This document shows, piece after piece, positions 24,861-29,019 of a DNA stretch of 30,494 bases. Every line of letters starts with the position of its first letter. Positions within the stretch are counted from its first letter, which is position 1. Under the pieces are notes generated by a model. That model saw nothing but the letters and a program-made list of their open reading frames with translations. It was not told the DNA's origin and did no database searches. The stretch is from NCBI GenBank assembly GCA_021801885.1, contig JAKABL010000001.1, positions 1-30,494 on the forward strand, read 5' to 3'. The DNA is from a bacterium. Lineage in GTDB: Bacteria > Patescibacteriota > Minisyncoccia > UBA6257 > 2-01-FULL-56-20. The translations under genes and the position numbers were made by a program.

Positions 24861-24977
24861 TTGATGTCGGCACATCCTACTTTCCCCATAAATGAGTATC
24901 ATCGGATTGGGGCGCTTTCACTTCTCTGTTCGGAATGGGAAGAGGTGGGGCACGCCCGAATGAAGCACCGACATCAA
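24861..24977 (-). rRNA. rrf: 5S rRNA
   Basis: Terminal helix TTGATGTCGG/CCGACATCAA; conserved CCCATTCCGAAC and GTAGG segments on the minus strand. Confidence 0.93.
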
Positions 24978-25403
24978 AAAGCCGTTTCTTGGCTTGTGAA
25001 GAAGATTTTTATGTTCCTCGGGGACGGCATAAAATTCTTCTGAATTTTTGCCGAGGCACTCGGCGCCTTCGCGCCTCCGTGACTCCCCTCGGAGCACAAA
25101 AATCTTCTTCACAAATCCAAAACGTTCTTTCTGATTGTAGAAAGCTGTTTCTTTCTGCTTCGGAGGGAATGTCGGAGCCGCGCGCCGCCCAAGAGGCGGC
25201 TACGCAACCCGAGACCGAGAGCGGCCGGTCAGCAGACCGGAACGCCGTCCCTACAAAGCAGAAAGAAACAGCTAATGCAAGTCAGCATTGGGATGGTTGG
25301 CGGGGTTATTAGTACGCCTCGGCTAAAGTCCTTGCGAACCTTACACCTAGCGCCTATCAACGTGGTAGTCTTCCACGAAACCACGCATACCTAATCTTGG
25401 GGT

Positions 25404-25437
<34 letters not shown>

Positions 25438-25555
25438 CTTCCATACATAGCTACCCGGCAATTCAGCTGGTGCCAAAGCCGGTAGACCAGAGGTATGTTC
25501 AGCCCAGTCCTCTCGTACTAAGGCCAACTCCCCTCAAGTATGAACGCCTGCAGCA

Positions 25556-25596
<41 letters not shown>

Positions 25597-26960
25597 ACGT
25601 GCCACTTTAATTGGCGAACAGCCAAACGCTTGGGAGCTTCTCCACCCCCGCGCTGTGGCGAGCCGACATCGAGGTGCCGAGCATTGTCGTCGCTAGGGAC
25701 GCTCGGACAATACTAGCCTGTTATCCCCGGAGTAGCTTTTATCCGGTGTCTCCGGCCTTCCTATAAAGAAGCCGTCGGGTCACTAACTTCTGCTTTCGCA
25801 CCTGCTCGACTTGTAGGTCTCGCAGTCAAGCCGGCTTTTGCGTTTGCACGTCCTGCCCGATTTCCATCCGGGCTAAGCCGACCTTAATAAACTCCTCCGT
25901 TACTCTTTTGGAGGAAAACGCCCCATTTAAACTGCCTACCAAGCACTGTCTCAATTGGGTTTCCTTTCGGTCCCCAACCGGTTAGACGTCAAAATTGTAA
26001 AGATGGCTGTTTCATTGACGGATCCACGCGAACCGAAATCCGCGCTTCAAATCCTCACCACTACGCTACGCAGTACAACTCTGAAATCAATACCAAGCTG
26101 CAGTAAAGCTTCCGGGGTCTTTTCGTCCCGCTGCAGGTATCCCGCATCTTCACGGGAATTGCATTTTCACCGAGCTCATCGTTGAGACAGTTCTCCGGTC
26201 GTTACGCCTTTCGTGCGCTTCGGAACTTACCCGAAAAGGAATTGCGCTACCTTAGAACGATTATAGTTATCGCTGACATTGACGAGGGCTTGACTCAGTG
26301 AGCAAACGCATTGCTGCGCCACCCCCAAGCTTGACCTTCTCGCATCGGTCAGGCGTCACCCCCTATACATCCTGTTGCCAGTTAGCAGGGAGCTGTGTTT
26401 TTGGTAAACAGTCGCCAGAGAGACTTTCGCTGCGGCCCCGCCGATATTGCTATCGAAAGGGCAGGCCTTATCGCTAACTTACGGCCGCTATTTTGCCTAG
26501 TTCCTTAACGATGACTCACTCGTTCCCCTTGGGCTACTCGCCCTATACACCAGTGTCGGTTTCCGGTACGGAGACCACGCGCTCGATTTAGCGGATTTTT
26601 CTCGGAGGGCTCTTCACATCCGTCGACCAGGTAAGTTCCTGACCTTCCGTCGGTGGCCGCATGAACTTGCCACAAACGATGCCAAACCAATAAGACACGG
26701 ATGCTTATTTCCCTCGTCCTCCGGTTATGATCGCGCGGTCGGGCTGGAATATTAACCAGCTTCCCATCGACTGCCCCTTTCGGGATTGCCTTAGGACCGC
26801 CTAACCCGTGGATGATTGCCAGTGCCACGGAAACCTTGTATTTTCGGGGTTCCAATTTCTCATTGGGATTGTGGTTACTCATTCCAACATTCTCTCTTCC
26901 GGCCGCTCCAATCGCCCTCGCGGATCGATCTTCACTGCAGGCCGAAATGCTCTCCTACCA

Positions 26961-27159
26961 TTCACTGACTTCATTGAGGAGGCGAATGCATTGCACTCGC
27001 CAAAAGATATTCCTGTGAACCGAAAGGTCCGCGGATAAAAGTGGTGAAGCGGGCTGGGATTGAACCAGCGACCTTCGCATAGTTTTGCGACGCTCTCCCC
27101 ACTGAGCTACCGCCTCACGCACGTTCGAGGAAATGATTCTCCTCAATGAAGTCAGCGAA
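26961..27159 (-). other. Intervening sequence in 23S helix 45
   Basis: ~200 nt replacing the short H45 hairpin; closed by a perfect 17-bp stem 26965-26981/27139-27155. Confidence 0.88.
27042..27116 (-). ncRNA. tRNA-like element inside the 23S IVS (G3:U70, A73, CCA; 6-nt non-canonical anticodon loop)
   Basis: GAGGCGG TA GCTC AGTGGGGA GAGC G TCGCA AAACTA TGCGA AGGTC GCTGG TTCAATC CCAGC CCGCTTC A CCA folds into a full cloverleaf. Confidence 0.85.
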
Positions 27160-27865
27160 TCCGTAGCTTCGGTACCATGCTTAGCCCCGGTACATTTTCG
27201 GCGCCGCCACCCGTCGAATAGTGAGTTGTTACACACTCTTTAAAGGATGGCTACCTCTAAGCCAACCTCCTATCTGTCTATGGGTGAGGACTGCCTTTTA
27301 CACTTAGCATGGATTTAGGGACCTTAGATGACGGTCTGGGCTCTTCCCCTCGCGACCATGGAGCTTAGCCCCCACAGTCTAACTAGTGGAATATGGGCCT
27401 GCGGTATTCGGAGTTTGATTGGTCTGCCGGAGTTTCCCCCTGTACAGACCATCCAGTGCTCTACCCCCACAGGGAACTTCCACCGCTAGTCCTAAAACTA
27501 TTTCGGAGAGAACCAGCTATTACGTTATTCGATTAGCTTTTCACTCCTTACCTCAGCTCATCCGAAGATTTTGAACAATCAACCGGTTCGGGCCTTCCCC
27601 CGCCTTTCGGCGGCGTTCACCCTGGCCAAGGCAAGCTCATAACGCTTCGGGTCTATCTTGTACTGCATAATGGGCGCCCTATTAAGACTCGCTTTCGCTG
27701 TGCCTTCGCGCTATTCGCGCTTAGACTGCAATACAAGATAAGTCGTTGGATCATTCTTCAATAGGCACATTGTCGCTCCGCGAAGACCCGAAGGCCTTCA
27801 CTTAGAGCTTCAATTCCTTGTAGACAAATGGTTTCAGGTTCTATTTCATCGGCCTCACCGGCCTG

Positions 27866-27902
<37 letters not shown>

Positions 27903-28828
27903 ATCTAGAAAAGTATTTAGCCTTACCTGATAGTACAGGCAAATTCACTCGAGACTGTTTTACCTCGAGCTACTCAAGTTAAAAAACTAAGGAGATCATC
28001 GGCTTTCGCCTACGGGGCTATCACCCTCTCTGGCGCCGCTTTCCAGACGGCTCCGGCTAGCTGACGATTTTTTTACTCCTCCACCGATCAGCAAATAACG
28101 CAACGCACGTACGCATCGCCCGAAGGCGGGCGCAGACGCGCTACGTTACTTGCTAAAAGAGCGTTCTTTTCTTATTACCCTAAGGTCGATCGTAAGATCA
28201 GAACCTTAGTTTGGGCTTTTCCCTGTTCTCTCGCCGATACTAAGGGAATAACTGATTTGTTCTTTTTTCCTCCGCTTACTGGAATGTTTTACTTCAGCGG
28301 GTACGCGATCGGCTTGCGCCGAACCATTGAGGTTTGCTCAATGAGGTTCCCCCATTCGGACATCCCCGGATCACAGGTTGCTACGCACCTCCCCGAGGCA
28401 TTTCGTTGCTACGCCACGTCCTTCATCGCCTTTTCTAGTCTAGGCATCCACCATTCGCCCTTAATGCCAACCATCCCAATGCTGACTTGCTCACGCCGCA
28501 CATCCGTAAAGAGATGCGGCGATCGCCATCATCATGTGATGATGTGTGACTCTGACTTGCCATGAGAAATTGCGCGCGGATGCATAACCACGCGGACCGG
28601 AAGTTCCTTACTTCCGATCTAATAAATGGCACAGAGTCTCCTTATTATTCCTCCGGCTCTACAATCCGGAAGTCCGCCAAAACCGACGGATAGATTGAAA
28701 AATGCACCGACGCGCTGTCCTTTCAAAAAAATCAGCCGCACTCGGCGGCCGTTCGCTGCGTCAAAAACGCGGCTTCAGCCGGAGTGTTTTGAAAGGTTGA
28801 TCTTGATAACCATATCGCGTCCTGAGTA

Positions 28829-28941: not shown

Positions 28942-28948
28942 AATTCTG

Positions 28949-29019
28949 TCGGGCTGCCGGGAATCGAACCCGGTCTTTACGCACCCGAAGCGCACGTACT
29001 ACCGGTATACTACAGCCCG
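28949..29019 (-). tRNA. tRNA-Pro(CGG), CCA not encoded
   Basis: Acceptor CGGGCTG/CAGCCCG, anticodon loop TTCGGGT, T-loop TTCGATT. Confidence 0.93.

Follow-up and report, generated by a model that had tools for sequence, protein, structure and literature searches.

A tRNA-shaped cargo in the helix-45 intervening sequence of 23S rRNA genes from one Parcubacteria (CPR) order

The 23S rRNA gene and its helix-45 insert

The window, by which we mean the whole stretch of 30,494 nucleotides of DNA analysed here, comes from a genome of 652 kb with a G+C content of 58%, which is available as a metagenome bin of 73 contigs and is 97% complete as estimated from marker genes. We refer to this source genome as G000, and other G-numbers denote the related genomes that were sampled. 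The window contains genes for a proline tRNA, 23S rRNA and 5S rRNA on the minus strand, and since there is no 16S rRNA gene upstream within the window the rRNA operon appears to consist of the 23S and 5S rRNA genes only. The features of the locus, including an insert located in helix 45 of the 23S rRNA, are as follows.

28948-29019, minus strand: tRNA-Pro(CGG) gene, upstream of the 23S rRNA gene
25291..28474, minus strand: 23S rRNA gene (Rfam LSU_rRNA_bacteria, 2338 bits, model matched over its full length 1-2925)
24865-24972, minus strand: 5S rRNA gene, downstream of the 23S rRNA gene
26960..27160, minus strand: helix 45 including the intervening sequence, seen as an interruption of the LSU alignment at model position 1218
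27139..27160, minus strand: 5' strand of the closing helix, made up of AUUCG and the core of 17 nt; predicted substrate of RNase III, from fold and sequence
27127..27144, minus strand: small local hairpin GAGGA..UCCUC, in competition with the upper end of the closing helix and kept in several homologues
27117..27122, minus strand: leader GUGCGU, pairing with the A73-CCA side to form the clamp helix
27042..27116, minus strand: tRNA-shaped module of 75 nt (ARAGORN, Rfam tRNA and minimum-energy fold)
26982..27041, minus strand: trailer with two hairpins, from fold and homologue comparison
26960..26981, minus strand: 3' strand of the closing helix, from fold and sequence

The 23S rRNA gene is 3184 nt long as compared to 2925 positions in the LSU model. 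The alignment is interrupted at model position 1218, which corresponds to the helix-45 loop enclosed by both strands of the hairpin, and the rest of the gene is complete, in agreement with a preliminary description of this DNA that had placed an insertion in helix 45. From anchor to anchor, helix 45 measures 201 nt here versus 28-30 nt in relatives without an insert (G019, G003 and G073 were compared), corresponding to a net insertion of about 173 nt. The same description had reported a closing stem of 17 bp; a perfect core of this length is present (27155-27139 with 26981-26965), but it is only a part of a continuous helix of 21-22 contiguous bp formed by positions 27160-27139 and 26981-26960. 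When folded, the 221-nt insert region reached -100.3 kcal/mol, with a z-score of -7.3 relative to shuffled sequences. The second hairpin of the trailer (27001-26981) is GC-rich and adjoins the closing helix, and the position of its GGCGA..UCGCC stem is kept among homologues.

A search of region 26900-27250 with intron covariance models yielded no group I or group II family at E <= 1. No sigma-70-like promoter was identified on the RNA strand inside the insert. The sole such site on this strand, TTGACT-16-TATACT at 28856-28829 (minus strand), is located upstream of the 23S rRNA gene and is followed by a terminator-like hairpin at 28751-28733 (minus strand), both in the interval from tRNA-Pro to the start of the 23S rRNA gene. 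The gene also contains insertions of about 100 nt near LSU model position 312 and of 18 nt near position 585, neither of which matches tRNA.

Four DNA runs from mine drainage contained 75-94% of the sampled words of the region, and in the best of these runs the unitigs tiled both junctions as well as the module at a depth of 17-24x, similar to the flanks, with one difference from the assembly in the D-loop (position 27100). Homologous inserts are found in genomes assembled into single contigs (G017 and G110), and the flanks of the insert make a closing helix in which the two sides are fitted to each other. The preliminary description had considered that reads might reveal an ordinary tRNA gene misjoined into the 23S rRNA gene, a possibility to which the state of the genome, a bin of 73 contigs, lends some weight. 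The evenly covered junctions and the homologous inserts both speak against such an assembly artefact, which we regard as exceedingly improbable.

The tRNA-shaped module

ARAGORN reported a "tRNA-???" at 27042-27116 on the minus strand, with a two-base "anticodon" that reflects a 6-nt loop, and the Rfam tRNA model (RF00005) matched with 54.9 bits (E = 2e-9), above the gathering score of 29 for the family. All 7 positions of the acceptor stem are paired (strands GAGGCGG and CCGCUUC, including G1:C72, A2:U71 and G3:U70) and the stem is followed by ACCA, which provides A73 and an encoded CCA. The D stem (4/4, GCUC/GAGC), the anticodon stem (5/5, UCGCA/UGCGA) and the T stem (5/5, GCUGG/CCAGC, with the loop UUCAAUC) are likewise fully paired, and G18G19 are present. 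The anticodon loop, AAACUA, has no U at loop position 2 and hence no U33, so that the combination of a 7-nt loop, U33 and a purine at position 37 taken to define a decoding tRNA is not found in the module. Folded alone, the 75 nt adopt the cloverleaf as their minimum-energy structure (-29.0 kcal/mol). ARAGORN, Rfam and direct reading thus bear out the earlier account of a 75-nt cloverleaf in rRNA sense orientation with an encoded CCA, G3:U70, A73 and a 6-nt loop without U33, that is, of a tRNA mimic without a usable anticodon.

Immediately upstream of the acceptor stem, U-1 and G-2 pair with A73 and C74, and beyond a bulged C three more pairs are formed with C75, A76 and the next C. This clamp helix is coaxial with the acceptor stem and has an energy of -9.5 kcal/mol. 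Shuffled leaders gave -4.0 kcal/mol and equalled the clamp in 3 of 200 cases. Between the module and the rRNA helix lie 22 nt on its 5' side and 60 nt on its 3' side, with the closing helix besides, which differs from punctuation of the mitochondrial type, where the tRNA is immediately adjacent to the mature RNAs and its two cleavages generate their ends. No features of tmRNA (tag frame, pseudoknots) were found in the insert, and the tmRNA of the genome was located on contig C22 by ARAGORN.

We also compared the modules with the housekeeping tRNAs of the genomes that carry them. In the closed genome G110, a module with a Lys(CUU) anticodon is redundant with a housekeeping tRNA-Lys(CUU) whose sequence is quite different, and in G146 the modules read as Arg(UCG) and Thr(GGU) duplicate housekeeping copies of a different sequence style. 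As judged from such comparisons, the modules are not the working tRNAs of the cell. In core identity, the module lineages were not separable from housekeeping tRNA-Val.

Two ideas about the identity of the window copy were abandoned. The first was that the module represents the missing tRNA-Ala(UGC): the G000 assembly lacks this tRNA, but about ten others are missing too, the loop cannot present UGC, and relatives, including G110, have a normal tRNA-Ala(UGC) elsewhere. The second was a derivation from tRNA-Ala, which was dropped since BLAST against E. coli genomes and phages gave generic similarity to tRNA-Ile/Met.

A separate observation concerns G146, in which tRNAs for Pro (CGG), Arg (GCG) and Arg (UCU) are located in tandem just upstream of the 23S rRNA gene on the opposite strand (L187:1997-2229). 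This trio is of the same 'UAGCUCAG' style as the insert modules, and each member duplicates a housekeeping tRNA.

Cassettes and modules in related genomes

Homologous inserts were examined in two samples. For the family sample, 121 genomes were searched with the helix-45 region, the site was recovered in about 60 of them and 32 of these were compared in detail; for the order sample, helix 45 was recovered in 129 of 200 genomes. The same closing helix was identified in at least 18 of the approximately 190 helix-45 regions obtained from these 321 genomes, 13 of which belong to the same family and 5 to other families. Most sites in the family sample are 28-30 nt long and contain no insert. The closing helix is near-identical in G000, G017, G108, G110, G125, G128, G137, G142, G146, G062, G025, G027 and G033, and ARAGORN and/or Rfam (42-73 bits) detected tRNA-shaped modules on the sense strand in 11 of these 13 family carriers. 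There is one module each in G000, G017, G125 and G027, two each in G108, G110 and G146, two or three in G137, G142 and G062, and five in tandem in G025; G033 has the extended helix alone (71 nt, no module) and G128 a degenerate mini-helix. The same closing helix with modules recurs in four other families of the order (G247, G271, G039, G221 and G239), and CCA-ended modules are located behind different closing helices in G293 and G186. A scan of a genome collection with the closing strand and a D-arm pattern returned three genomes, all of which were already in the sample, and in a metagenome scan with a 14-nt word from the closing strand all 80 of the 80 loci examined were chance matches without 23S context.

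Within the genus of G000, the site is empty (28 nt) in nine genomes, holds the cassette in two (G000 and G017) and contains an S23p-type intervening sequence (IVS) in one (G010). The helix-45 insert of G010 (L020:154-528) is 483 nt long and is placed between inverted runs of heptamer repeats of the ACTGGTA/ACTAGTA type; it encodes a protein of 124 amino acids with a match to the Pfam domain 23S_rRNA_IVP (E = 1e-28), as in a classical ORF-bearing IVS. The tRNA-type and S23p-type cassettes thus alternate at one site within a single genus, and the co-occurrence of empty, tRNA-type and ORF-type sites indicates that helix 45 is a hot spot for interchangeable cassettes, like that of classical IVSs. 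Overall, inserts at this one site range in size from 28 nt to more than 750 nt, with unrelated contents.

The ends of the G000 insert (about 45 nt each) are 94/91% identical to those of G108 and 85/90% identical to those of G110, versus 80/75% for the congeneric G017. Given that the segments are only about 45 nt long and that G017 may hold assembly errors, these values are at most suggestive of a horizontal transfer of the cassette. The G017 genome is 70% complete, and in it the RNase III gene is broken into two overlapping frames (G017:C1:471600-471996), which suggests a long-read assembly with indel errors, so that single-base features such as its 8-nt anticodon loop need care.

Other inserts were noted in both samples. 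Unrelated helix-45 inserts of 100-190 nt are present in many further genomes, among them G097, G114, G085, G194, G236 and G219 (L022, L023, L026, L224, L221 and L225); from both the family and the order, these are AT-rich, consist of short direct and inverted repeats, form long imperfect hairpins and have no tRNA-like part. In G051 (L212), helix 45 is an extended hairpin alone (52 nt), and two tRNA-like modules on the sense strand (minus-strand 1-75 and 105-176; Rfam 47-48 bits), called "Tyr ata" and "Phe aaa" by ARAGORN, are located about 700 nt downstream of helix 45. Their site, a second one in the 23S rRNA, falls near LSU model position 1750-1800, which fits helix 63.

We quantified the conservation of the stems in 16 modules of standard size. 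Paired positions amounted to 106/112 in the acceptor stem, 79/80 in the T stem and 64/64 in the D stem, with 4-6 types of pairs per acceptor position, and 13 of 18 modules folded into the cloverleaf by energy alone; in all such counts the modules are non-independent through common ancestry, and tRNA finders favour well-folded copies. The modules of G017 and G247, which belong to different families, have a common T arm, their acceptor stems are distinguished by three double compensatory changes, and their anticodon stems are entirely different in sequence yet paired in both. The survey of helix-45 insertions proposed in the preliminary description thus found the fold to be kept with compensatory changes, also across families.

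The termini were compared in about 24 modules. An encoded CCA is present in 18 of these, being absent from both modules of G146 and from those of G110; among housekeeping tRNAs, with the IVS modules excluded, it is encoded in 1/38 in G000, 9/43 in G110 and 16/45 in G146. U-1 precedes 16 of the 18 CCA-bearing modules versus about 38% of genomic tRNAs, and the nucleotides of the D/T-loop elbow are kept across modules. A clamp helix of 5-11 bp between the leader and N73-CCA and beyond is predicted in about half of the modules, including that of G000, with a sequence that differs from module to module.

The anticodon arm varies freely. Its loop is reduced to 3-4 nt on stems of 6-7 bp in G108-1, G025-3, G293 and G017 (the latter in the energy fold), and otherwise measures 6 nt in G000, 8 nt in G017 and 9 nt in G142-3, and hairpins of 50-170 nt are inserted into the arm in G125, G110-2, G062-2 and G039. 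According to ARAGORN, other modules have normal 7-nt loops with unrelated anticodons, namely Lys CUU, Pro CGG, Arg UCG, Thr GGU and Thr CGU, in addition to "Ser" GGA and "Leu" AAG, both lacking the long variable arm, and CUA in two cases. Because the anticodon arm drifts while the rest is held by compensatory change, the selected property would be the tRNA shape and its ends rather than decoding. Selection appears to keep the tRNA body (acceptor, D and T arms, elbow, CCA and U-1) and not the anticodon.

It could be argued that the modules are harmless stuffers, never matured, without a role and degraded after excision, and that the shape persists because it is a self-folding compact domain that is tolerated in rRNA. 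This would fit the patchy presence and loss of the cassettes, as exemplified by the extended helix alone in G033 and G051 and the degenerate mini-helix in G128. It would also fit the clamp helices, which close each module into a domain, the anticodon stems, which co-vary like the other stems, and the rapid degradation of the IVS RNA in Coxiella (PMC4990558). Self-folding leaves unexplained, however, the invariance of CCA on acceptor stems that differ widely and the retention of U-1 and of the elbow nucleotides of the D and T loops, and we doubt this explanation without dismissing it.

The tip of helix 45 faces the solvent, which would leave room for an insert that is retained after maturation of the 50S subunit, as an expansion segment that ends in a tRNA-shaped knob. 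Many insertions have also been described in CPR rRNAs (PMC11270868). On the other hand, excised IVSs have both this site and a closing helix that is long and perfect, the wide range of sizes with unrelated contents at one site also speaks against retention, and in a retained segment there is no obvious reason for the conservation of CCA and U-1. We therefore attach very little credence to retention.

The base pair G3:U70 is the determinant for alanyl-tRNA synthetase (AlaRS), an enzyme that ignores the anticodon, and the sequence of the window module combines G3:U70 with A73 and a CCA end as in AlaRS substrates. AlaRS is encoded in G000. G3:U70 was observed in approximately 6 of 24 modules (G000, G125, G137-1, G142-2, G025-3 and G025-4), together with A73 in all of these but G025-4, which has U73. 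This share exceeds the roughly 7% that a normal set of tRNAs would lead one to expect. Approximately 18 of the 24 modules have a Watson-Crick pair at 3:70, with G3:C70 in G017, G108, G110-2, G247 and others, and the determinant is consequently not conserved among the homologues. Alanylation, put forward in the preliminary description as one fate of the RNA, does not hold up as a conserved purpose, since G3:U70 is missing from the nearest homologue, G017 of the same genus, and from most modules. Furthermore, position 2:71 is A:U where G:C is usual, the genome yielded no aminoacyl-tRNA transferase of the FemAB type, and the release of the RNA is a step that we infer rather than observe. Alanine charging of the window copy is possible, but that the released RNA is charged through G3:U70 and A73 and serves in trans, as an aminoacyl carrier that does not decode or as a decoy, seems to us very improbable.

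Proposed processing and relation to known systems

RNase III is encoded in G000 and in all five of the other carriers tested. The helix-45 IVSs of Salmonella, Leptospira, Campylobacter and Coxiella burnetii are excised by RNase III, and in C. burnetii the IVS has a stem of 28 bp and its removal leaves 23S rRNA fragments of 1.2 kb and 1.7 kb (PMC4990558). Taken together, the site, the long perfect helix, the patchy presence and the RNase III gene match the insert to this class. The best reading is that it is a helix-45 IVS cassette of one Parcubacteria (CPR) order with a tRNA-derived, non-decoding cargo.

Components for the processing of tRNA ends are also encoded in G000. RnpA is present, and an RNase P RNA of 279 nt was located on contig C6:1733-2011 (L040:1501-1779, minus strand), with 49 bits as compared to an Rfam gathering score of 100. 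The region of its specificity domain is mostly missing, being reduced from about 110 to 22 nt, and the CCA-binding loop is strongly divergent in sequence in the Rfam alignment. Recognition of the tRNA elbow may accordingly differ from that in model bacteria, as suggested by the reduced RNA. The CCA-adding enzyme is a fragment at a contig end, and no clear RNase Z was identified in G000. Metatranscriptome runs of the same study contained no words from the insert and next to nothing of the 23S rRNA of this organism around it.

We propose that the whole insert is transcribed within the 23S rRNA precursor and that RNase III would cut the closing helix of 21-22 bp, as in classical helix-45 IVSs, giving 23S rRNA pieces of about 1.3 kb and 1.7 kb that would be held together by the remaining pairs of helix 45. 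The excised RNA of about 190 nt would consist of a compact cloverleaf clamped by a short leader-trailer helix. A stable tRNA-like RNA of 75 nt might then be generated by RNase P, which would set the 5' end at 27116, together with trimming of the 3' side as far as the encoded CCA at 27042, and the module would be maintained as a self-folding substrate of the tRNA-maturation enzymes and not as an adaptor. On account of its conserved tRNA body, U-1 and CCA, the module is plausible as a target of RNase P and of 3' trimming. In model systems, the pairing of a leader with A73-CCA hinders RNase P until the 3' side opens, and by this reasoning the clamp helix would count against the maturation step. 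Balancing these points, we see the chances as even that the insert is trimmed into a stable 75-nt RNA whose shape and ends, but not decoding, are under selection.

The preliminary description had suggested that the tRNA mimic itself recruits RNase P and 3' tRNA nucleases for the excision of the IVS, which would then fragment the 23S rRNA in a bacterial version of tRNA punctuation. The enrichment of U-1 and of encoded CCA (the latter in 1/38 of the tRNAs of the genome) suits the processing of tRNA ends, and the conserved tRNA body, the presence of modules in most cassettes and that of RNase P components agree with such a signal. The mimic is nevertheless unlikely to be needed for excision: a perfect helix of 21-22 bp and an RNase III gene are there anyway, relatives such as G033 and G051 have hairpin-only inserts or module-free versions of the cassette, the module is set apart from the rRNA by 40-60 nt on both sides, and one module would suffice where arrays of 2-5 are found. 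We consider a role as processing signal quite unlikely. Both mechanisms of the preliminary description, the recruitment of tRNA nucleases and the release of an alanylatable RNA, are thus possible for the window copy, while neither is supported as a common function.

A broader hypothesis is that the inserts in CPR rRNAs give rise to CCA-ended, non-decoding tRNA-like RNAs that are expressed at the level of rRNA and act in trans. Possible roles would be as carriers charged through the acceptor stem (with alanine in this case) or as decoys for nucleases or toxins directed at tRNAs. We think this unlikely, but if it were true, maturation by RNase P would couple tRNA processing to the fragmentation of 23S rRNA.

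In several respects the cassette resembles classical helix-45 IVSs. It occupies the same rRNA site, its terminal inverted repeats form a long closing helix, it is patchily distributed among close relatives, it resides in a single-copy gene of a reduced genome, and a congener (G010) has the ORF-bearing form at the same site. It differs in that the cargo consists of up to five tRNA-shaped modules with CCA, whereas classical IVSs contain nothing or a gene for S23p (23S_rRNA_IVP), and in that excision is predicted here. Short inserts without introns or ORFs at known IVS sites were previously recorded, as uncharacterised insertions, in what is the most comprehensive survey of CPR rRNAs, where the authors suggest that those at sites 23IS2 and 23IS4 are IVSs of the RNase III type (Tsurumaki et al. 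2024, PMC11270868). The insert described here is from the same lineage and probably belongs to the same class, being short and free of introns and ORFs. The word tRNA does not occur in that survey and the tRNA-shaped cargo is not described there, and our search of the full-text literature for tRNA-like elements in bacterial 23S rRNA IVSs found nothing relevant.

Functional tRNAs are well known as neighbours of rRNA, with tRNA-Ile and tRNA-Ala genes in the 16S-23S spacers of bacteria and tRNA punctuation in mitochondria. A tRNA gene is located between the two parts of the LSU rRNA in Tetrahymena mitochondria (Heinonen et al. 1987, as cited in PMC2996981). As in such spacers of split or linked rRNA genes, the tRNA shape is part of the rRNA transcript, and its release by RNase P together with 3' processing is conceivable. 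Unlike the spacers, which contain working tRNAs, the module has an unusable anticodon loop and is located in a bacterial 23S rRNA, inside a hairpin-closed insert of one of its helices. Mimicry of the acceptor and T arms with G3:U70, A73 and CCA but no anticodon function is shared with the tRNA-like domain of tmRNA and with viral 3' tRNA-like structures. The module differs from tmRNA in having no mRNA-like part and in its full D arm and anticodon stem, in a genome that has its own tmRNA elsewhere, and from tmRNA and other non-decoding mimics in that G3:U70 is not conserved among its homologues.

We conclude that the insert is a real and conserved variant of the classical 23S helix-45 IVS, apparently undescribed, of which the window contains a clean example with a single module. 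A practical consequence is that tRNA finders report the modules as odd or suppressor tRNAs ("Pyl/CUA", "Ser" or "Leu" without long arms, and "tRNA-???" in this case), and annotation and inference of the genetic code in CPR genomes should discount tRNA calls inside rRNA genes. Helix-45 IVSs have been known for decades as empty hairpins or as carriers of a small protein gene; here, they contain a tRNA-shaped, non-decoding cargo that is spread over several families in one order of ultra-small bacteria. If these RNAs are only stuffers, they show which folds are tolerated as passengers in rRNA and how hairpin-bounded cassettes carry tRNA genes from place to place. Should they be released, they would represent a new class of abundant small RNAs from the rRNA operon, and a natural test of how RNase P, the CCA-adding enzyme and the synthetases recognize their substrates when the anticodon is irrelevant.
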